Shown one piece after another: positions 1 through 17,648 of a stretch of DNA of 18,612 bases. Every line of letters starts with the position of its first letter. Position 1 is the first letter of the stretch. Under the pieces are notes generated by a model. That model did not search any database. It was not told where the DNA came from and saw nothing but the letters and a program-made list of their open reading frames with translations. Made by a program: the position numbers and the translations under genes. This DNA is from Candidatus Hodarchaeota archaeon (lineage in GTDB: Archaea; Asgardarchaeota; Heimdallarchaeia; Hodarchaeales; Hodarchaeaceae). Location of the stretch: positions 1 to 18,612 of the forward strand of contig JAUUVJ010000012.1 in NCBI GenBank assembly GCA_030589605.1, given 5' to 3'.

Positions 1-665
1 AAATTACAGGAATAGTCGGGCCATCTGGAAGTGGGAAGACGACTTTTTTACGACTAGTGAACAAACTCATTTCCCCTACTCAAGGCGAGATTAGTTTAAA
101 CATAAATTATCATTATTCCACTTTGTCATCACGTGGATTGCGTAGAAAAATTGGCTTTCTACAACAACTCCCCTCTCTTTTTCCAGGAACAATTAAAGAT
201 AACATTGAATATGGTCCACAACTTCAGAATATTGATATTTCAGTTCAAGAAATTAATGAACTATTAACAAAAGTAGACTTGGATCCACAGATTTATTTAA
301 ACCGTAAGACATCAGAATTATCAGGAGGAGAGCAACAACGAGTGTGTTTAGCAAGAACTTTAGCAAATAATCCCTATGTACTATTATTGGATGAACCCAC
401 TTCATCATTGGATATTGTTTCTGAGAGTATTGTAGAAGAGACACTCCTTAAACTGGTGAATGAAGAAGGAATAAAAATCATTATCGTCACTCACAGTCTA
501 GAACAAACTAAACGACTAACAGATGAAATAATCTTCCTCAAAAATGGGACAATAGAAACACAAGCATCAACGAAAGAATTCTTTCAGACTTATTCTGAAA
601 ACCAAATAATCGATTTATTTAAAAAGGAGAAAAAAAATAATGGCAGAAATAATAAGTCAAACTGA
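1..665 (+). CDS. fetA: ABC transporter ATP-binding protein, FetA/YbbL-like (5' end cut by window edge)
   Basis: The frame is open from base 3. ITGIVGPSGSGKTTFLRLV is Walker A, LSGGEQQRVCLARTL is the ABC signature, VLLLDEPTSSLD is Walker B, and VTHS is the H-loop. TGA stop at 663-665. The track start at 57 (GTG) is therefore internal. The gene overlaps the downstream UPF0014-type permease by 26 nt, the FetAB arrangement. Confidence 0.9.
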   Translation, partial: ITGIVGPSGSGKTTFLRLVNKLISPTQGEISLNINYHYSTLSSRGLRRKIGFLQQLPSLFPGTIKDNIEYGPQLQNIDISVQEINELLTKVDLDPQIYLNRKTSELSGGEQQRVCLARTLANNPYVLLLDEPTSSLDIVSESIVEETLLKLVNEEGIKIIIVTHSLEQTKRLTDEIIFLKNGTIETQASTKEFFQTYSENQIIDLFKKEKKNNGRNNKSN

Positions 666-1437
666 ACTGTGGGAAACACTTATTCGGATTTTTCTTTCGG
701 GAATATTACTTCTAGTTATCCTCATAATATCATTCTGGCAACAACTACAGATGAGTAAAACGATAATTGTAAATTATATACGGGGGTTAATACAGATTGT
801 TATACTTGCTTTCGTTCTTGTTTTGATTTTTAACTTAAAGAATTTAATGGTAATTTACCTTTATATGTTTGGAATGGTTATTTTTTCAGCTTTTACCGCT
901 AGACAACGGTATAAATATATTGATGTTCTGAAAATGGAGGTCATTGCTATCTCTGCAGGTGGTTTAGGAGTAATGGGGTTTGTAACAATTTTAGGTATTA
1001 TCGAGCCAACTGGGGAGTACTTGATTCCTATGGGAGGAATGGTCATTTCTAATGCTATGATCTGGACTACTATGACCTCAGAAAGGTTAACTTCAGATTT
1101 CATTAAAAATAAAAACTTGATTGAAGCATCCCTTTCTCTTGGTGCAAGTCCTAGAATGGCAATTTATATTCTTCTTCGAGATGCAATTCAGACTCCTTTT
1201 AATCCATCCATTGATCGAATAGCTGTTTTAGGCATAGTTTCAATACCAGGTTTGTTAGCAGGTATGATCATTGGAGGAAAAAACCCCATTATAGCGGCAG
1301 TTTATCAGATAATAATATTTTTAATGATCCAAGCAGCGGGTCTTATTGCAGTGGTAATTATTACCTATTTATTGATTCAGAAATTTTTCAACTCTTTAGA
1401 GCAAATAAATTATGAATTATTTACCAATAATAAGTAA
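640..1437 (+). CDS. fetB: ABC exporter permease, FetB/YbbM (UPF0014) family
   Basis: 265 aa and polytopic. The block LSLGASPRMAIYILLRDAIQTPFNPSIDRIAVLGIVSIPGLLAGMIIGGKNPIIAAVYQIIIF aligns by eye with E. coli FetB LSLGATPKQA..LIRDSIRAALIPTVDSAKTVGLVSLPGMMSGLIFAGIDPVKAIKYQIMV. Translationally coupled to the upstream ATPase. Confidence 0.9.
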   Translation: MAEIISQTELWETLIRIFLSGILLLVILIISFWQQLQMSKTIIVNYIRGLIQIVILAFVLVLIFNLKNLMVIYLYMFGMVIFSAFTARQRYKYIDVLKMEVIAISAGGLGVMGFVTILGIIEPTGEYLIPMGGMVISNAMIWTTMTSERLTSDFIKNKNLIEASLSLGASPRMAIYILLRDAIQTPFNPSIDRIAVLGIVSIPGLLAGMIIGGKNPIIAAVYQIIIFLMIQAAGLIAVVIITYLLIQKFFNSLEQINYELFTNNK

Positions 1438-6594: not shown

Positions 6595-8655
6595 ATGAAA
6601 CAAATCATTAGAATAGTATCAACCTTAGGATTCCTCCTTATATTCAGTACAATTGTATTTTTCCCTCGATTGGATATCGTTATAGGTGAACCATTACTTA
6701 ATAATCCACAAAAATATATTTTTGAAACTTCAAGTGCACATCCAGCTTCAATTGATCCCGCAATTAATTATGTATCCTTTGGATCAGGGATAAATGAACT
6801 CATCTATGAAACGCTTGTTGATTATGTAGGCAATTCAGCTAATGAGTTAGAAGGAAAACTAGCAACTGATTGGATCATCTCTTCCGATGGTTTACAATAT
6901 ACCTTTAATCTAAGAAAAGATGTTACTTTTCATGATGGTACCCCTTTTAACGCATATATCATGAAGTATTCACTGGACAGGGTTGTAATTCTAAATGATC
7001 CCGGGGGACCTGCTTGGATGATCCAACATGTAGTTATTGGGGGTAACGAGATCAAATCATTGGAAGATGCCAATATTAGTGATGCCATTACATTCATCCA
7101 AGGAGAGGCTTTCAAGGTTATTGACGATTACACCTTCCAAATTAACTTAGAACGGCCGTATACTCCATTCATATATGTTCTAGCTAATCGAATGGGAGTA
7201 GCAGTCTCACCAAGAGCAATAGCAAAGAATAAGCCTTTTTATTATACAACTGATCAATATGATGACTTTTATGGCATGGTGTCATTACGTGATTGGTTTC
7301 CCGACCTTACAGATCAGGAAATTTGTACTAAACTGGGTCTAGAATCGAATTGGGATGTAGATATCTCAGGAGTCGTTCCCAGCTCCGCTGGAGATGAAAT
7401 GAATCGACATGAATGGATGAGTGTCCATGGCGTTGGTACTGGACCATATCAACTCATTGAGCCCTCACATTTTGAAAAGAACAGGGTTTGGTGGGGGTCA
7501 TTTGCACAATATTCCCCTGATGAGATTTTCATCGAAATTGTTGATGAACCCCAATTACAAATTTACGATATTAAAGATGGTAAGGTAGATGAGGCTGTAA
7601 TTCCCGTGTATCAGGCGTCTGAAATTGTGGATGTTGATGAATTTCCACTGAGTAGAGAACTTGAAGTTTTATCAACATTTGAAGGAATTCAGGCTTTTAG
7701 CACTCGTACTTTTAATCTAATATTTTTCGGTATGAATATGAATGACAATCTTTCACCCTATATCAATGAAGACCCCAACACAGAATATGTTGCCGATAAT
7801 TTTAACCGCTATAGCTGGGGTACAGAGAAGGCTAGCTCCAATAACCCCTTCACTGCGCTACGCTTTCGGAAAGCTTTTGTAATGTCATTTGACTCTGAAA
7901 GTATAATTCATTCTACACTCAATGGCTTTGCTGAACCGATGGAAGGCTGCATTCCAAATGGAATGCTGGGTCATCATGGAAGGTTAATCGAAGAAGGATT
8001 TATTCCAACATATAATCCCGCTGCTGCCATGGAACTCTTCAAAGAAGTAAAATGGAATGGATCAATTATTTTATCCTTTTGGGAAGAATTTAGGTTTCGT
8101 AAACAAGCACTAGAACTACTAAAGGATACAATTAATAATATGGACATTGGAATCGAGATAGTTCTCCAATCCCTTGATTGGCCTGATTATCGCGATCGCC
8201 GGTATAATCAATTATTAGTTCTCGATGGCGCTGGCTGGGTACCAGATTATGCAGATCCAGACAGTAATATTAGAGGTTTCTTACATAGTCAGGATGGCTA
8301 TTTTGGTCCACGAATCAATTATATTAATCCATCACTAGATGCTTTAATAGAACAAGCAGCAGAGGAAACAAGTTACACGAAGCGGGAAGAAAAATACTGG
8401 GAAATCGAATTAATGGTGGGTGAAGACGTTCCATTCATTTATGGATCTCAGGTACACCGTTTTACTGTTATACGTGATTGGATTCATGATTACGAAGAAT
8501 CGGGATCATTCAATCCAATGTCGTTTATGGTTAATGCGGAACATATCAATAAATATGAGGAACAGACGATAGTAATAACTCCAGGGTTTGATATAGGCAT
8601 CGTAATCGCAATTGTATTTATCTTTTCTTTGATTCAACGAAGAAAGAAACAATGA
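6595..8655 (+). CDS. ABC transporter substrate-binding protein, family 5 (peptide/nickel/oligosaccharide type), with N-terminal signal anchor and PGF-CTERM-like C-terminal anchor
   Basis: ETLVDYVGNSANELEGKLATDWIISSDGLQYTFNLRKDVTFHDGTPFNA is the classic SBP_bac_5 N-lobe signature. N-terminus MKQIIRIVSTLGFLLIFSTIVFF is hydrophobic. The C-terminus ITPGFDIGIVIAIVFIFSLIQRRKKQ is PGF + TM helix + basic tail. No permease or ATPase genes are adjacent. Confidence 0.9.
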   Translation: MKQIIRIVSTLGFLLIFSTIVFFPRLDIVIGEPLLNNPQKYIFETSSAHPASIDPAINYVSFGSGINELIYETLVDYVGNSANELEGKLATDWIISSDGLQYTFNLRKDVTFHDGTPFNAYIMKYSLDRVVILNDPGGPAWMIQHVVIGGNEIKSLEDANISDAITFIQGEAFKVIDDYTFQINLERPYTPFIYVLANRMGVAVSPRAIAKNKPFYYTTDQYDDFYGMVSLRDWFPDLTDQEICTKLGLESNWDVDISGVVPSSAGDEMNRHEWMSVHGVGTGPYQLIEPSHFEKNRVWWGSFAQYSPDEIFIEIVDEPQLQIYDIKDGKVDEAVIPVYQASEIVDVDEFPLSRELEVLSTFEGIQAFSTRTFNLIFFGMNMNDNLSPYINEDPNTEYVADNFNRYSWGTEKASSNNPFTALRFRKAFVMSFDSESIIHSTLNGFAEPMEGCIPNGMLGHHGRLIEEGFIPTYNPAAAMELFKEVKWNGSIILSFWEEFRFRKQALELLKDTINNMDIGIEIVLQSLDWPDYRDRRYNQLLVLDGAGWVPDYADPDSNIRGFLHSQDGYFGPRINYINPSLDALIEQAAEETSYTKREEKYWEIELMVGEDVPFIYGSQVHRFTVIRDWIHDYEESGSFNPMSFMVNAEHINKYEEQTIVITPGFDIGIVIAIVFIFSLIQRRKKQ

Positions 8656-8921
8656 TATTATCACTTAATATCGTGATTTTCCTCCCCCCCATAAGAAAAA
8701 CATATAGATAAGCCAAGAACTAATAAAAATAGATTGAAGGCCTCGGAACTAGGGTTTCAGTTTAATTTTGCTTCTTTATCTATTCTGATTTTACTTTATA
8801 CAATAAAGGTGATTGATGAAAAAGCGTTTATTGCTTTAACTGGGCCAATAATCGCGGTAGGAATCATTCTCTATTATTTTGGTTATTACAGTTTTGGGCG
8901 GAACTGATAAAGGGAAATTTT

Positions 8922-9122
8922 GTGAAAACTCGGATTAAAGAATTCAGAGCACGATATAATTTAACTCAGAAGGAACTTGCAGGCAAAGTTGGTGTTCGAA
9001 GATAAACAATTATGTTCCTAGAAAAAAGAAAGTACAATCCCTGTCTTAAACTAGCATATAATATCGCTCAGGTTTTCGAAACCTCAATTGAAAACATTTT
9101 TATCTTTGAGATTGAAGAATGA
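8922..9122 (+). pseudogene. XRE-family small HTH transcriptional regulator interrupted by in-frame TAA (9003-9005)
   Basis: GTG start, then [65 protein letters not shown]. This matches the ubiquitous ~66-aa regulator pattern (.LtQeeLA.kvGVsRQTI..iE.GKYNPSL.LA..IA.vF...ieeiF.fe). The stop sits where the conserved Gln (CAA) of RQTI is expected. Missed by the ORF track because each half is short. Confidence 0.8.
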
Positions 9123-9570
9123 AAACTTCCTAACTCTACTGTTAAAACTGAAATTTATTGTGCCATGGCTTATAGTTTTCAGGTATTTTAAACAAATTAT
9201 TCTGTTCAAATATATTTTTTTAAATATACAATACTTCTGGATTTGATGAACAAGAGATTTTACTAGCAAGGCTATCTAATTCTTCGTATAAAACTAGTTT
9301 CAGTTTTCTTTTTAGGTTTCAAATACCCCACATTTCCGAGGCAAGAACTTCTACCTTATTTGATCAGGAGAAAAATAACAGTAGGGAATATTTTACTGAC
9401 GATATACCATCTATCTTTAACCTTTGTGCTTATGATTACAGCCAAAGTAAAGTGGAAAAGAATTCGCTTATGAAATGACATATTAATCTGGTCAAGTTTC
9501 CTCAGGATTACCTAGAGAATACTCAAGCCTTAAATATTATTATGAAAAAGTAGATTCTGAGGATAAAAAG

Positions 9571-10872
9571 TTGGGAATTGAAAATCTATCTTCAACAGGA
9601 TTTCAGCCTGAATTAGTCAATTTAACTGAAATGAAAGAAGTTGTAGCTACATCTATCTTTATTGGAGACGGAATGTCTGGTAAAACTCAGATTCTAATTA
9701 CCCTTGGAAAATTATTATTGGAATATTTACAGAAAATCTATCAGATATCAAAAACGAATAATCCAAGCCTAGAGGCAGAATCACAGGAATTTTCAAAATC
9801 TCTTCGAACTTGGGCTGAAGGATATGGTTTTTTCTTAAGATATGGAAAGATAAAATGGAATATTATGGATGTTAGTCTTGATGCAGAAACTGTAGGATTA
9901 GAGGATTTTGAATTCATCTTTCCATATGTCTGGAAAGGACAAACGTACAAAATAAAACTTCAAGGAAATGATGTGGGAGGTCAAAATATATTCGATCATT
10001 TCAGAACTGTTCTAGGTAAGATTGTAAGCCCAGAAGATTTTTTAATTGTTGTTTTTGACAAATCTAGACAGTTATCATGTTTTAATAGTATTAACCAGAT
10101 TAAATCTATTATTGAGAATCGATCCGATTTTCCTCGAATAATCTATTGCGTGAACAAAATTGATTTAGAGGAACATATTCAAGCCACAACTTGGCGTGAG
10201 GGTGTATCTAAATCAATATTACAGGAGATTGAAAGCATAAGTTATTCTCATCAAGGAGAATACTCTATACCATCTTTAGTAGGAAAAGAAGAAAAAAGCA
10301 TTAGGTATAAAATTGAGAATAATAGATTGACTTTTCCTGACTTAGAAGCAATAATCTATAACTCGATTAGAAGTTCGGATAGCAAATATAAAACGCAACT
10401 GATGAGTGAAGTTAATACTAAAGCTCTTTCTCGGGAAATTGCTGCTCAAATATCCTATAGCAAAAAAGCAGATAACATTGGAAATCAAAATGACCATTTA
10501 GGGGAATTATGGAGTGATTTTAAAGACTTACTCTTTCAATATCGTCCTCTTGCAATACAATATTCAATAAAATCCGATTTAGCCCGAAAAGAAGAAGATT
10601 CTGATATTTATGGCCGAATACGAGAAAAATGGCTTTATTTTGCAGTCAATTTACCAATCCCTGAAGAATTAGTAATGTTAGCCATTGAAAAAGCGGGCAG
10701 TGCGGGAGATATTCTTTCGGAAATGGAAGCTGTTTTCGATACAAACGCTCTTATGGGAAGTGGAATTCTTAAGATAATAGATCATATAACCCAAGAAGCT
10801 TTGATCAAAATTGGAGAATCAAGTATTCAAAAAACAAAAGAACCAATCAGAAGACAATTCAGAAGATTTTAA
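9571..10872 (+). CDS. Divergent Ras-superfamily (Arf/G-alpha-like) GTPase with pre-switch-I insertion and long C-terminal extension
   Basis: G1 GDGMSGKT (nt 9664-9687), candidate G2 Thr in AETVGLED, G3 DVGGQ (9970-9984), G4 NKID (10153-10164). TTG start with GAGGA 8-9 nt upstream. The ATG at 9631 (MKEVVATSIFIGDGMSGKT) would give a more canonical N-terminus. Confidence 0.85.
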   Translation: MGIENLSSTGFQPELVNLTEMKEVVATSIFIGDGMSGKTQILITLGKLLLEYLQKIYQISKTNNPSLEAESQEFSKSLRTWAEGYGFFLRYGKIKWNIMDVSLDAETVGLEDFEFIFPYVWKGQTYKIKLQGNDVGGQNIFDHFRTVLGKIVSPEDFLIVVFDKSRQLSCFNSINQIKSIIENRSDFPRIIYCVNKIDLEEHIQATTWREGVSKSILQEIESISYSHQGEYSIPSLVGKEEKSIRYKIENNRLTFPDLEAIIYNSIRSSDSKYKTQLMSEVNTKALSREIAAQISYSKKADNIGNQNDHLGELWSDFKDLLFQYRPLAIQYSIKSDLARKEEDSDIYGRIREKWLYFAVNLPIPEELVMLAIEKAGSAGDILSEMEAVFDTNALMGSGILKIIDHITQEALIKIGESSIQKTKEPIRRQFRRF

Positions 10873-11033: not shown

Positions 11034-12596
11034 TTAATCCTGTAGTTTCGGCAAATTAATTGTTAATGTTGTACCTGTATCTCTACCCTCACTGTAAGCG
11101 TATATACTACCATTGTGGAGACTGATTATTTCACTAGAGATATATAGTCCATTCCCTGTCCCTGTAATATTGTATTCTGTTGGATAGGATACAAATTTAT
11201 CAAAGATTTTCTCCAAATTATCAGGTTCTATCCCAGCACCATTATCAGTAACAATTATCTGAACTTCAATATCAGAAACACTCAATTCTATAGAAATATT
11301 CCTGGTTTTACTTTGAGAGTTATTGATTGCATTTTCAAGAACATTGCCTAGAACATTTTTCAGTCTTTTAGGATCACCATTTATGATTATTTTTTCTTTA
11401 ACATTAAGGTTGATCCATCGTATTTGTCCTTGATATAATCTGATATATGGTTCAATGAAGGAGGTTAAAAACTCAATTATTTCCATTTTCTCTAAATTAA
11501 CTTCAAGTTTTCCTCTTTCTATTTTGTAAATGTCACTTACATCACTACTAAGATCTTCTAAACGATGTAAATTCTTCATTATAACATCTAAGAAATAAAT
11601 TTTTCTTTCATCTTCTTCTTGCTTCATTAAGAATTCTGTATACCCTTTTATAATAGTAATAGGAGTACGTAATTCGTGTGCGGTTTTGTCCATAAATTCT
11701 CGCCTTTTCTCAGCAAGTGATTCTCGTTCTTCTTGAGTCTTTTTTCTTTCTGTTACATCGCGAGCAACTAAGAAAAATCCTAAAGGGTGGCTTAACTCAT
11801 CTTTAATAACTGATGTACTTATTTCAGCACTGAATTTGCTACCATCCTTCCGAATCATTGTGTATTCAGTCTCATTAATTGCTCCTAGCTCAATGGTCTT
11901 TTTCATATTCTTAAGAGCATACTGGTGGTCATTGGGAATAATTAAATCATAAACACTCTTTCCAATTAATTCATTCTCTGTTTCATAGCTATACAACATT
12001 ACTGTTTGCTGGTTAAGGACAACAATGTTCGCATTAAGGTCTAATAAAAGTATAGCATCTGGTGACAGTTCCACAAGCATACGATATCGTTCTTCACTTC
12101 TGTGTAAAGCCTCTTCAGCTTTTTTACGCTCTGTAATGTCAGTAAAAATATAAACTATACTATTAGATCTTTCAGGCGTAGAAATAAGAGAAACAGTTGT
12201 TAAAAAAACAGGTACCCGATTACCATCTTTTGTTAAAAGATTACACTGAAATGAACTACTGATCCCCTCATGATGTTTTACAGAGTCCCTCTCGAATTTA
12301 TTAAGTTCCTCTGAGGGTATAATAATATCCTTTTGTTTTCCTAGCAACTCCAATTCAGTATATTTTAGGATCTCAGCAGCTCTAGGATTTACAAAAGTAA
12401 AATTTCCTTCTATACCTTCTAAGAGAATTCCTTCATTTAAACTCTTTACCAAAAATTCGTATCTTTCTTTATATTCGTTTAGATCATCATCTTTTTTTTT
12501 AATAAGAGAAATAATTTGTTGTTGAAAACTAGGAGGTAATGAACTGAGAATATCGCCTTTAATGAAATCTTCTATATCATTATTCTCCATATTCAT
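11034..12596 (-). CDS. Cytoplasmic sensor histidine kinase with two PAS domains
   Basis: Two PAS modules ending in FTDITERKKAEEAL and ARDVTERKKTQEE. H-box KTAHELRTPITIIKGYTEFL. HATPase_c motifs VLENAINNS, DNGAGI, GTGNGL. No TM segments. Confidence 0.95.
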   Translation of the reverse strand: MNMENNDIEDFIKGDILSSLPPSFQQQIISLIKKKDDDLNEYKERYEFLVKSLNEGILLEGIEGNFTFVNPRAAEILKYTELELLGKQKDIIIPSEELNKFERDSVKHHEGISSSFQCNLLTKDGNRVPVFLTTVSLISTPERSNSIVYIFTDITERKKAEEALHRSEERYRMLVELSPDAILLLDLNANIVVLNQQTVMLYSYETENELIGKSVYDLIIPNDHQYALKNMKKTIELGAINETEYTMIRKDGSKFSAEISTSVIKDELSHPLGFFLVARDVTERKKTQEERESLAEKRREFMDKTAHELRTPITIIKGYTEFLMKQEEDERKIYFLDVIMKNLHRLEDLSSDVSDIYKIERGKLEVNLEKMEIIEFLTSFIEPYIRLYQGQIRWINLNVKEKIIINGDPKRLKNVLGNVLENAINNSQSKTRNISIELSVSDIEVQIIVTDNGAGIEPDNLEKIFDKFVSYPTEYNITGTGNGLYISSEIISLHNGSIYAYSEGRDTGTTLTINLPKLQD

Positions 12597-15343: not shown

Positions 15344-15640
15344 ATGGTGAAAAATTTGGTAAAACTAGATCAAGTAATTGGACAGGAGATTACTCTTACT
15401 GGATTTGCTAAAGTAGCCAAAGGAGGAACAGTTCTTATCACAGAGGATAACAATGTAGTTTATGTAAAAGGATCAGGATATTGGCCACTAGACCTGATAA
15501 ATAAACAAGTGAAAGTTCGGGGAGTGTTGAAAAAAGAGCAGTTTATCCCTGAAGCCACTATTGATGAGTATGGCGGTATTAGCAGCGGCGCTACAGGGAA
15601 ACAATATGTGCTGGAAATGATAGAGTATTCAAAGGTCTAA
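15344..15640 (+). CDS. Hypothetical protein (98 aa), beta-rich, unknown family
   Basis: ATG start and clean ORF in an otherwise stop-dense AT-rich region. The pattern G.EITLTG.AK.AKGG.VL......VYV.G...WP.DL..K.VKV.G.L...Q.IPE...D..G.IS.GA.G.QYVLE looks like a conserved small domain, but I cannot name it. Confidence 0.5.
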   Translation: MVKNLVKLDQVIGQEITLTGFAKVAKGGTVLITEDNNVVYVKGSGYWPLDLINKQVKVRGVLKKEQFIPEATIDEYGGISSGATGKQYVLEMIEYSKV

Positions 15641-15905: not shown

Positions 15906-17096
15906 ATGATGAAGCCTAAAGAAAAAGAAATCATTGATACTAAAATAACAGATCAATGGGGTGTAAATTGGACACCCATGGAAATTGCAAGGGACTTTCT
16001 TCAAAATTTCTACGATGACAACAAAATAGATGATATTAAAATAGAAATTAAAAGAACATCTGTTGTTGTATCTGCTCCTAAGGTCTTTGATTATAAAGAA
16101 TTACTATATTTGGGTTCAGATAAAGAAAAAGGAAAAATTGGACAATATGGGGAAGGATTCAAAGCTGCAACGTTAAATGCTTTGCGAAACCATAATTGTA
16201 ATGTAATAGTTATAATCAGGGATATTAAATTAGATTTCTTCTTTACTTCTGAAAAAATAGGGAGGACGGAAAAAAAAGTGGTGAAATGTAAGAAAACAAC
16301 TTCCAGCAAAACTCCAGGAACTAAGCTTATACTTGAAAATTGTCCTGAAGAATTACTAAACGAATTCAGATTTGGTCTAAAGCATTTCTACTATGATAAC
16401 AATCCTCTATTTGGGGAAATTTTAGCGAGTACATATGAACAAGATATTTTTGTGTATAAATCTACAGATAATAATGGTTATGTTTTCTATAAAAATCTCT
16501 TACGGGCGAGAATAGGTGTCCCACTTGTGTTAGTTTGTAATCGAGCGTACTCCTCAGTGGATAAGGTAATTCAATTCGACCGAGACCGAAAAGCATTTGA
16601 TACTCATGTTCTAGAGAGCATTTATGAATTCATTTTTAGACCACTTAATAAAATTAGTCCTATAGTGGAATTTCTACAACCTTGGTGGTCTGATGGTCAC
16701 AAAATGCTTTCAACGATAGCTAAATCTGCCACTTACTTCCAAAAAATGCAATTTCCAGAGAAGTATTATGCTAAACACTCCACAAAAAAAATTTTCAATC
16801 CACAGATGAAAAAAGAAATAGAACAAAAACAAAAAGAACTATATGAGAGCGATTACATAGAATGTCCACATTATATGTCCAAATTAGGAATGAAAAATAT
16901 AATTACGATTATAGAAGAACAGAGAATAAGAGCAAGAAAACAACAGCAAGAAGAACCAGAGATTAGATCACTTATTCATGTAATTATCGATAAACTTTCA
17001 GAGGAGCAAAAATCCAGACTTTTAAAGAATATTCCAGAGGAGCAGCTACTAAAAATCCTCCAAAAAGAGAATATTTCACTTAAAGACTTTCTCTAA
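15906..17096 (+). CDS. GHKL-superfamily (sacsin/Hsp90/MORC-like) ATPase-domain protein, function unknown
   Basis: N-box-like ARDFLQNFYDD (compare ELLQNADDA / ELISNSSDA) at nt 15993-16019. Glycine motif LGSDKEKGKIGQYGEGFKAATL (compare sacsin iG.S.K....iGrFGiGFnS and Hsp90 IGQFGVGFYS) at nt 16137-16160. The remainder (~300 aa) is unrecognised, with a charged helical C-terminus. Confidence 0.6.
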   Translation: MMKPKEKEIIDTKITDQWGVNWTPMEIARDFLQNFYDDNKIDDIKIEIKRTSVVVSAPKVFDYKELLYLGSDKEKGKIGQYGEGFKAATLNALRNHNCNVIVIIRDIKLDFFFTSEKIGRTEKKVVKCKKTTSSKTPGTKLILENCPEELLNEFRFGLKHFYYDNNPLFGEILASTYEQDIFVYKSTDNNGYVFYKNLLRARIGVPLVLVCNRAYSSVDKVIQFDRDRKAFDTHVLESIYEFIFRPLNKISPIVEFLQPWWSDGHKMLSTIAKSATYFQKMQFPEKYYAKHSTKKIFNPQMKKEIEQKQKELYESDYIECPHYMSKLGMKNIITIIEEQRIRARKQQQEEPEIRSLIHVIIDKLSEEQKSRLLKNIPEEQLLKILQKENISLKDFL

Positions 17097-17195
17097 AAAA
17101 AAGCTTGATTCCTCTTCAAGTTTTTTTGCCCTAGCTTTTGCTTCTTCATTCCCTCTCAATAGAGAGATCATTAAATCACTATCCAAACAGATCAT
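17076..17195 (-). pseudogene. vapC: vapC (PIN-domain toxin) N-terminal remnant
   Basis: Minus-strand ATG at 17195 overlaps the end of vapB and reads MICLDSDLMISLLRGNEEAKARAKKLEEESSFFLEKVFK*. M.(L)D(S/T)..(L)I.LLRGNE.A...L is the typical VapC/PIN N-terminus with the first catalytic Asp. The frame closes after 39 codons, inside the terminator hairpin and the 3' end of the convergent gene. A full PIN domain is ~130 aa. Confidence 0.55.
17097..17127. terminator. A-tract / hairpin / T-tract structure (bidirectional terminator-like) between convergent genes
   Basis: aaaaaagcttga (17097-17108), a 7-nt loop, then tcaagttttttt (17116-17127), giving a 12-bp stem with one G-U pair. An A8 run lies on one side and a T7 run on the other. 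It begins right at the TAA of the GHKL gene. Confidence 0.5.
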
Positions 17196-17406
17196 TGAAT
17201 TGTCCCTCTAAATCATTTAAGGCCGTCTTCATCATTTCTAGTTCATCTGACGAGAGTTTCCATGTTCCAGCGAAACTTAGTAAAGATTTTCGTTTCATAG
17301 GACGTGTTAATCGTTTAACCACATCAGAAAACGACTCATTACCATTTTTTTCTTTTTTCAACCTTCGATATGCTTCATCATCTAAACTAATGTTTTTACT
17401 ACCCAA
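17179..17406 (-). CDS. vapB: VapB-type antitoxin (archaeal PF02697 / former DUF217 family)
   Basis: MGSKNISLDDEAYRRLKKEKNGNESFSDVVKRLT...KSLLSFAGTWK matches the family pattern tIslsDevYerLkklK..gESFSDvI.rL....k.l..faG.w. TTG start. Its 3' end overlaps the vapC remnant start. Confidence 0.75.
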   Translation of the reverse strand: MGSKNISLDDEAYRRLKKEKNGNESFSDVVKRLTRPMKRKSLLSFAGTWKLSSDELEMMKTALNDLEGQFNDLFG

Positions 17407-17648
17407 TTTGATTCACATATGCATATAAACACACAGAATATATATGGATTATCTTCTTTGAGTTAACCTAATTATAGATGAAACGAGCACATCCTAAAAA
17501 CCTAACGGAAGCAGATGAACTGAAAGCAAGAATTTTAATAGTTCTATTTACAAGAAGAAAATTCTAAAGGATCAAGGAAAGCTTTTTATTTTATTGAATA
17601 ATAAATGGTACTCACTCTATAATTTCATGAATGAGAACTATATAATAT

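Follow-up and report, generated by a model that had tools for sequence, protein, structure and literature searches.

A Ras-like GTPase split by two insertions, very probably of the Rup3 group, in a Candidatus Hodarchaeota archaeon

The GTPase gene and its sequence motifs

The first 18,612 nucleotides of contig JAUUVJ010000012.1 from Candidatus Hodarchaeota archaeon (assembly GCA_030589605.1; Heimdallarchaeia, Hodarchaeales), referred to below as the window, encode an atypical GTPase of the Ras superfamily at 9571..10872 on the forward strand. The open reading frame (ORF) begins with TTG and specifies 433 amino acids (aa). An NCBI record with an identical 433-aa product annotates the TTG as the start. 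Because the 'GFQPxxxxL' stretch that precedes Met21 at the N-terminus is conserved among homologues, the TTG, and not the ATG at 9631, is taken as the correct start; in the family as a whole, the N-terminus is a poorly conserved extension carrying the 'GFQP' motif. The sequence GAGGA (9559..9563, forward strand), situated 7 nucleotides 5' of the TTG, is a possible ribosome-binding site.

The boxes of the Ras superfamily occur in the expected order (G1 GxxxxGK[ST], G2 Thr, G3 DxxG, G4 NKxD, and G5 [ST]Ax), and all lie on the forward strand. Their conservation was counted over 85 distinct family sequences and followed column by column in an alignment of 62 homologues. The P-loop GDGMSGKT (G1, aa 32-39, 9664..9687) is invariant in the alignment and aligns to the P-loops of RhoA and Rab28. 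Switch I (G2) reads SLDAETVGLED (9874..9906) and includes Thr107; Glu106, Thr107, Gly109, and Glu111 are invariant, and the threonine is present in 85/85 sequences. The G3 box, DVGGQ (aa 134-138, 9970..9984), in which Asp, both Gly, and Gln are invariant, contains the catalytic-type Gln138 and aligns to DIGGQ of Rab28. In the G4 box, NKID (aa 195-198, 10153..10164), the Asn, Lys, and Asp are invariant. Strand β6 and the true G5 box are found close to the C-terminus, in VFDTNALMGSG (aa 388-398, 10732..10764), which aligns to 'CSAKTGYG' of Rho; in the G5 columns of the alignment the Thr and both Gly are invariant and Asn and Ala are at least 90% conserved (Asn in 78/85 and Ala in 83/85 family sequences). 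Throughout the 85 sequences, the residues that correspond to Ras K16, T35, Q61, N116, and D119 are invariant, and a Gly occupies the position matching Ras G12. Such a motif set is far beyond chance. An earlier note on this DNA had proposed the ORF, each of these motifs, and a genuine if atypical GTPase with all five boxes, and in these respects it holds: the gene and the motifs are real, lie where it had placed them, and are (near-)invariant among the homologues.

The distances between the boxes are unusual. From the G1 Lys to the switch-I Thr they amount to 57-104 residues in the family and 69 in the window protein (19 in Ras), and from that Thr to the G3 Asp to 23-29 residues (22 in Ras), which corresponds to a small expansion of the β2-β3 hairpin. 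The G4 Asp and the G5 Thr are 186-205 residues apart in the family and 193 in the window protein (about 25 in Ras).

Topology of the G domain

Sequence profiles recognize the intact protein poorly. Among Pfam families, it matches only Ras and Roc (E-value about 4e-4), over G3-G4 only, and its Ras score of 20.4 bits is sub-threshold with respect to the curated cut-off of 21.6; an NCBIfam scan of the full-length protein gave no match. An unspliced profile of the family, compared with PDB sequences, aligned to Rho1 as three separate pieces, i.e., the P-loop, G4, and the extreme C-terminus, and even without splicing its '..stnalsGeGi..' segment falls on the Rho1 G5 box 'ECSAKTGYGV'.

The picture changes upon removal of two segments in silico (31-80 and 183-342 in Met21-based numbering, equal to ORF aa 51-100 and 203-362). 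With both inserts removed, 19/19 tested members match Pfam Ras best (best E-value 9.9e-14), the Ras score rising from sub-threshold to E-values of 1e-7 to 1e-13; the best E-values for Roc (2.4e-9) and Arf (1.5e-8) among these members are both weaker than for Ras. The spliced profile aligns RhoA 1-180 end to end, with TNAL on the Rho G5 box, and the junction left by the second deletion coincides exactly with the Rho insert in this alignment. The closest solved relatives of the spliced profile are Rab28 (1.7e-9), RhoA, Rab27, and Rab6.

The same order of elements is predicted by AlphaFold2 (AF2). The full-length model, built from the 62-sequence alignment, has a mean predicted local distance difference test score (pLDDT) of 82 and a predicted template modelling score (pTM) of 0.83. 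In Met21-based numbering, strand β1 is followed by a 25-residue helix α1, a low-confidence loop (45-52), a short helix, and short strands; then come β2 to β5 with α2 and α3, a long helix, a β-hairpin, and six further helices; the C-terminal part comprises α4 (345-362), β6 (368-370), α5 (379-397), and a disordered tail. In the ORF, α4 spans about aa 365-382 (10663..10716, forward strand; modelled as helices 345-355 and 358-362, and aligned to RhoA α4 after splicing), and α5 lies at 10765..10821 on the same strand, aligned to RhoA α5. Compared with the PDB, the full-length model retrieves Rab/Rho G domains alone, at a template modelling (TM) score of about 0.5. The architecture of one Ras-like G domain (G1-G5, six strands, five helices) interrupted by two insertions is well supported.

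As G5 is the C-terminal TNAL, the 'tail' of the protein turns out to be a stretch of some 160 aa inserted between NKID and α4. The earlier note had treated everything beyond the apparent G domain as a 200-aa tail of unknown nature; that segment is instead a domain inserted in the G domain, which α4, β6, G5, and α5 close on the C-terminal side. The note wavered over G5: TNAL, its alternative with a G4-G5 gap of about 190 aa, is the correct choice, and IESISYSHQGE, its other candidate, falls within the second insert. A different way to accommodate the long C-terminal half would be a two-domain protein, in which a truncated or degenerate N-terminal G domain uses 'IPSL' or 'IESISYSHQGE' as G5, an independent C-terminal domain follows, and the likeness of TNAL to a G5 box is coincidental. 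In agreement with it, P234, S235, and L236 (ORF numbering) are nearly invariant and are preceded by a helix and a strand, their distance from NKID being close to the canonical one. However, the Thr of TNAL is invariant, its Asn and Ala are conserved as given above, and an invariant GxG follows; the segment falls on Rho CSAKTGYG before as well as after splicing. Moreover, excising aa 199-364 lifts Pfam Ras to E-values of 1e-7 to 1e-13 with full-length coverage of RhoA, and the strand and long helix that AF2 puts at the C-terminus are placed as β6 and α5. A two-domain protein is, on these grounds, very unlikely.

Insertion 1 and the resemblance to G-alpha

Insertion 1 (about aa 51-100, 9721..9870, forward strand) lies between α1 and switch I, as delimited by AF2 secondary structure and pLDDT, indel-rich alignment columns, and the spacing in the family. 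Its approximately 50 residues comprise an extension of α1, a low-confidence loop of 8-13 residues with variable length, one short helix, and short strands. Residues F87, Y91, G92, and W96 (ORF numbering) are invariant in the 62-sequence alignment and flank the indel-rich columns.

The G-alpha helical domain consists of six helices and about 120 aa. The earlier note had pointed out that the insertion lies where G-alpha carries this domain. The topological point is indeed shared, but a G-alpha-type helical lobe is not supported: the insert is less than half as long, its middle is disordered and length-variable, and the position of the G-alpha arginine finger (RxxT, i.e., Thr minus 3) is occupied by Asp in 70/85 family sequences and by Arg in 0/85. 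The DVGGQ box, taken in the note as the G3 form common to Arf and G-alpha, is likewise present and likewise no pointer to these families, as Rab28 has DIGGQ too.

Both observations bear on the reading of the protein as an Arf/G-alpha-like GTPase with a G-alpha-type helical lobe over the nucleotide and an unrelated 200-aa C-terminal domain, the label given by the earlier note. The insertion point between α1 and switch I, the G3 box, and the match of spliced sequences to Pfam Arf (with the best E-value cited above) are all as this reading would predict. Nevertheless, every spliced member scores higher with Ras than with Arf, and for the spliced sequence of the window protein itself Arf comes below both Ras and Roc in Pfam; a Pfam scan of the full-length protein gives no G-alpha (PF00503) match; the 60 best PDB matches listed for the spliced profile include neither Arf nor G-alpha chains; and the supposed tail holds the last four elements of the same G domain. 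Arf and heterotrimeric G-alpha were accordingly rejected as family assignments, in favour of a Ras-like one. The Arf/G-alpha reading is largely refuted and can be given very little credence.

Insertion 2, a conserved domain at the Rho-insert site

Insertion 2 (aa 199-364, 10165..10662, forward strand) is an α/β domain of about 160 aa at the position of the Rho insert, as located by the splice alignment and AF2; it is placed between NKxD-LEEH and α4. Modelled alone, it reaches a pLDDT of 82.4 and a pTM of 0.80. It is about as conserved as the G domain itself, the fraction of majority residues being 0.54 in comparison with 0.51-0.73 in the core segments. In the numbering of the excised insert, the invariant residues include H4, W10, D59, E61, Y65, N84, R90, E91, R127-P-L-A-x-Q132, R153, and W156, which in ORF numbering correspond to LEEH, W208, FPDLEA, Y263, N282, R288-E289, R325-P-L-A-x-Q330, and R351..W354. 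Foldseek searches with its fold gave no significant match in the PDB (best E-value 0.89) or BFVD (best E-value 0.39), the profile of the insert had no significant match among PDB sequences, and the scan of 25 members against Pfam yielded no match. Insertion 2 is a genuine conserved domain by its behaviour, without a detected relative in the PDB, BFVD, or Pfam.

A 370-aa protein from a JGI metagenome (P0090) is a small GTPase that has no Insertion 1, and its G4-G5 region is weakly like Insertion 2 (FEAxxY, NxKxLxRE). With an hhalign probability of only 19.6%, it is not claimed here as a relative carrying Insertion 2, i.e., as a distant intermediate form.

The C-terminal tail

The protein ends in a basic tail, ...RRQFRRF (10825..10869, forward strand), which is predicted to be disordered (pLDDT <50) and possibly forms a short amphipathic helix. 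Across the 85 family sequences, the terminal residue is Phe in 74/85 with [KR] at positions -2 and -3, and the net charge of the last 20 aa has a median of +6. Calculated for a helix, the hydrophobic moment of the tail is 0.83-1.0 in the window protein; the family average lies 1.2-1.4 standard deviations above shuffled sequences. Other membrane-associated NTPases carry comparable targeting helices. By its composition, the tail probably fits a short amphipathic helix that docks on a membrane or on a partner. A PCNA-interacting PIP-box was considered in view of the genomic linkage to a PolB gene in some relatives (see below), and was rejected: the tail has no conserved Gln and is strongly polybasic.

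Distribution of the family and its relation to Rup3

Homologues fall into 71 clusters at 90% identity and come from Asgard metagenome-assembled genomes (MAGs) labelled Heimdall, Hodarchaeales, or, generically, Promethearchaeota. The exceptions are a 'Thorarchaeota' label on three matches and a 'Hermodarchaeota' label on two members of one cluster; these NCBI labels are considered unreliable. When 1.84 billion representatives were searched exhaustively with a profile, only 15 proteins were found at E <1e-30; after a score gap, ordinary small GTPases appear at E-values of about 1e-8 to 1e-4. The family is delimited by this gap (members at E <=1e-54, ordinary GTPases at E >=1e-8). Deep members, at 23-29% identity, retain both inserts, the TNAL box, and the basic C-terminus. 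Clustering by identity puts the window protein in a clade termed here 'A-type'.

The earlier note had found the architecture unfamiliar, yet a GTPase group that is confined to Heimdallarchaeia and carries unusual insertions already has a name. Rup3 was defined as a Heimdallarchaeia-specific group of the Ras superfamily, set apart from the others, with group-unique expansions between G1-G2 and G2-G3 (Fig. S2 legend), no eukaryotic relatives, and a function that is not known (Vargova et al., bioRxiv 10.1101/2024.02.28.582541). The same authors class Dive96_bin3.136 as Hodarchaeales. As far as the available parts of that description go, the present family agrees with it: it is restricted to Heimdallarchaeia, appears by the score gap to stand apart from the Rab/Ras/Rho/Arf/Rag-like groups, has no eukaryotic relatives, and shows expansions of both G1-G2 (57-104 residues vs 19) and G2-G3 (23-29 vs 22). 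By the published description, the family is thus very probably Rup3. Three features are not mentioned in the available Rup3 text: the domain of about 160 aa between G4 and α4, at the Rho-insert site; the C-terminal motif; and an operon that joins the GTPase to a ~1,300-aa orphan protein.

An orphan protein encoded with other family members

In eight loci, an orphan protein is encoded directly upstream of a family GTPase. The complete copies have 1,264-1,327 aa; the copy in locus L010 (779 aa) is cut by the contig end. The distance from the end of the orphan gene to the start of the GTPase gene is -14 to +3 nucleotides in 7/8 loci. The arrangement occurs at L001 15123-20417, L002 6982-12256, L003 15244-20443, L004 5961-11404, L010 3-3704, L015 5977-11266, L017 1644-6953, and L018 124-5298. 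The GTPase that follows the orphan gene is a second, 'B-type' paralogue in other genomes; the pairing also includes deep clades (L017 and L018) and one A-type member (L010). An example of the B-type is UCG01857.1, whose upstream neighbour is a 1,302-aa protein (JSW11_19905). As the arrangement extends to deep clades, the family probably had the orphan protein as its ancestral partner, and so tight and ancient a coupling suggests, on the strength of gene context, a stoichiometric complex. The orphan protein had no match in Pfam, the PDB, or PADLOC; no hydrophobic transmembrane segment was found in it, which points to a soluble protein. Its homologues come only from Hodarchaeales/Heimdall MAGs.

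In one Hodarchaeales sub-lineage, an operon of PolB, DUF8156, and Rad51-like genes lies between the two GTPase genes (L001 11290-14556, L002 3239-6622, L003 11329-14720, L004 1-2021, L006 11323-16293, and L015 1-4792). The A-type gene is oriented tail-to-tail relative to this operon, and the operon of the partner and B-type GTPase head-to-head. In the deep clades no such linkage was seen; it may reflect synteny alone. The PolB genes of L004 and L006 contain an intein with a LAGLIDADG domain.

A further family clade is represented at L005 1-17657 and L014 1-11150, within a conserved cluster beside SMC-ScpAB. This cluster also encodes response regulators, PAS histidine kinases, and additional Arf/Rag-like GTPases, four or five in number and about 460-470 aa long.

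Gene neighbourhood in the window

In the window, the GTPase is a stand-alone paralogue. None of the neighbours conserved elsewhere (PolB, DUF8156, the Rad51-like gene, a 376-aa gene, and the partner) was found there. Downstream and convergent with it is a PAS histidine kinase gene (11034..12596, reverse strand; Pfam PAS, HisKA, and HATPase_c), a possible partner. This kinase is the full-length orthologue of the kinase encoded at 8288-9892 (reverse strand) in L006, with 47% identity over 482 aa without gaps; the latter is head-to-head (divergent) with its A-type GTPase, whereas the window pair is convergent. In agreement with the earlier note, no recognizable Roadblock, longin, GAP, or GEF domain is encoded next to the GTPase in the window, and Pfam confirms the PAS kinases nearby.

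The GTPase might accordingly be a switch in two-component signalling that works with the neighbouring PAS histidine kinase(s) and not with the ~1,300-aa protein. The orthologous kinase adjoins an A-type GTPase both in the window and in L006 in spite of the change in orientation, clade-8 paralogues are clustered with genes for response regulators, histidine kinases, and GTPases, and a seven-transmembrane histidine kinase gene is located upstream of the partner-GTPase operon in L004. Prokaryotic Rup GTPases are also reportedly tied to two-component systems by genome context, a view said to go back to Wuichet and Sogaard-Andersen in 2014. On the other hand, the A-type loci L001, L002, L003, and L011 have no kinase beside the gene, the GTPase and kinase genes are never co-oriented in an operon, and PAS kinases may simply be abundant in these genomes, as three are encoded in the 18.6-kb window alone. 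The evidence for a link between the PAS kinase and the GTPase is weak, and a switch in two-component signalling is unlikely.

The genes upstream of the GTPase encode a family-5 solute-binding protein (Pfam SBP_bac_5), a 57-aa hydrophobic product (8734-8907), and, just downstream of the latter, a small XRE/Cro-type helix-turn-helix regulator (8922-9122, forward strand). The regulator gene is interrupted by an in-frame TAA at 9003-9005, where relatives usually have Glu; read through the TAA, it gives a 66-aa product that matches Pfam HTH_3 with an E-value of 2.5e-9. Possible explanations include loss of function as a pseudogene, an error in the assembly, and recoding. Farther away, the window contains a 396-aa ORF without Pfam or PADLOC match (15906-17096, forward strand) and unannotated ORFs of 98 aa and 96 aa (15344-15640 and 17138-17428, respectively). 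An ABC ATPase gene followed by one for a UPF0014 membrane protein (57-1437, forward strand) is unrelated to the GTPase; the two genes are similar in arrangement to a FetAB-type exporter pair. Searches for tRNA genes and Rfam families in the window gave no match. A role in defence was considered and rejected, PADLOC having no match for the GTPase, the partner, or the neighbours.

A proposed mechanism

The window protein is likely to be a split Ras-like GTPase of a small, Heimdallarchaeia-restricted group, very probably Rup3, which acts as follows. The protein would bind guanine nucleotide and cycle as a GTP/GDP switch by means of the invariant switch-I Thr and the G3 Gln. The built-in arginine of the G-alpha type is absent, and therefore stimulated hydrolysis would need an Arg, supplied by a partner or from among those that are invariant in Insertion 2. 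Both inserts would leave the core on the side of the nucleotide base and probably pack into one accessory lobe, which would serve as a surface for effectors or regulators. As the α1 extension is modelled with pLDDT >90, its packing against Insertion 2 into one lobe is suggested. Docking on a membrane or a partner is probably the task of the basic amphipathic tail. The ancestral partner would be the orphan, soluble protein encoded immediately upstream of other paralogues; the window paralogue may act with it in trans or, alternatively, with the adjacent PAS histidine kinase.

Several observations weigh against this interpretation. The assignment to Rup3 was made by description, and the available figure legend names the G1-G2 and G2-G3 expansions only, with no G4-G5 insert. 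Matches to the family are mostly from Hodarchaeales and not demonstrably spread across the whole class. No copy of the ~1,300-aa partner is present on the window contig, and linkage to the PAS kinase is found in only 2 of about 7 A-type loci.

Large inserts and a tight operon with a giant partner also recall scaffolding subunits, and the protein could be imagined as a pseudo-GTPase or a purely structural subunit that does not cycle nucleotides. However, the P-loop Lys and Thr, the switch-I Thr, DxxGQ, NKxD, and the Ala of G5 are (near-)invariant in the 85 sequences, down to 23% identity. Conservation of the residues expected to contact the nucleotide argues for retained binding and hydrolysis, and a non-cycling protein is hardly credible.

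In a bolder extension of the proposed mechanism, Insertions 1 and 2 would form a convergent, G-alpha-like 'clamshell' lobe next to the nucleotide pocket with R288, R325, or R351 as a finger or lid, and together with the ~1,300-aa protein would constitute an undescribed, Heimdallarchaeia-specific GTPase machine, perhaps membrane-associated via the [KR][KR]F terminus and, in some lineages, tied to the operon of PolB and Rad51-like genes. Taken as a whole, this extension is rather improbable.

Comparison with known GTPases

The family shares with RhoA the P-loop GDGxxGKT, the site of its second insertion (exactly that of the Rho insert when the profile is aligned to RhoA), and, once spliced, an end-to-end alignment over residues 1-180. 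It differs in that the Rho insert is a 13-residue helix, whereas Insertion 2 is an unrelated α/β domain more than ten times as long; it also has an extra insertion before switch I, DVGGQ instead of DTAGQ, and no CAAX box. Rab28 (PDB ID: 2hxs), which gives the best PDB E-value with the spliced profile, has closely similar boxes (GDGASGKT and DIGGQ) but no inserts, and the similarity is low and limited to G1-G4. G-alpha proteins have DVGGQ as well, together with an insertion between α1 and switch I that differs in kind as described above; their G5 box is TCAT, in contrast to TNAL of the family. In G-alpha an extra element (αG) follows NKxD. A precedent for a folded subdomain between G4 and G5 is provided by the translational GTPases of the EF-G/RF3 type (the G' subdomain), which, however, represent another class of GTPases; no similarity of their sequence or fold to Insertion 2 was detected by Foldseek against the PDB or by profile comparison with PDB sequences.

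Two further families were considered and rejected. For Rag/Gtr, neither the full-length nor the spliced window protein had a roadblock or Gtr1_RagA match, and its C-terminal region is the G domain itself; among the remaining 18 spliced members, a single one matched Gtr1_RagA, weakly (E-value 0.0014). For ROCO proteins, the Roc match is confined to G1-G4, the next segment is an insert inside the G domain, and no COR match was obtained.

Implications

The protein illustrates a caution for annotation: inserts that split a domain can bring the score of a true Ras-like protein under the Pfam thresholds, after which its C-terminal half passes for an unknown domain. The architecture is unusual and lineage-specific, in a group that has already been catalogued. 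Asgard archaea, and Heimdallarchaeia especially, are the nearest known relatives of eukaryotes, and their expanded sets of GTPases are read as precursors of eukaryotic trafficking and signalling. A group without eukaryotic descendants points therefore to lineage-specific cell biology and not to eukaryogenesis. For this named but uncharacterized group, the insert domain, the co-encoded orphan protein, and the C-terminal motif provide a concrete and testable anatomy.

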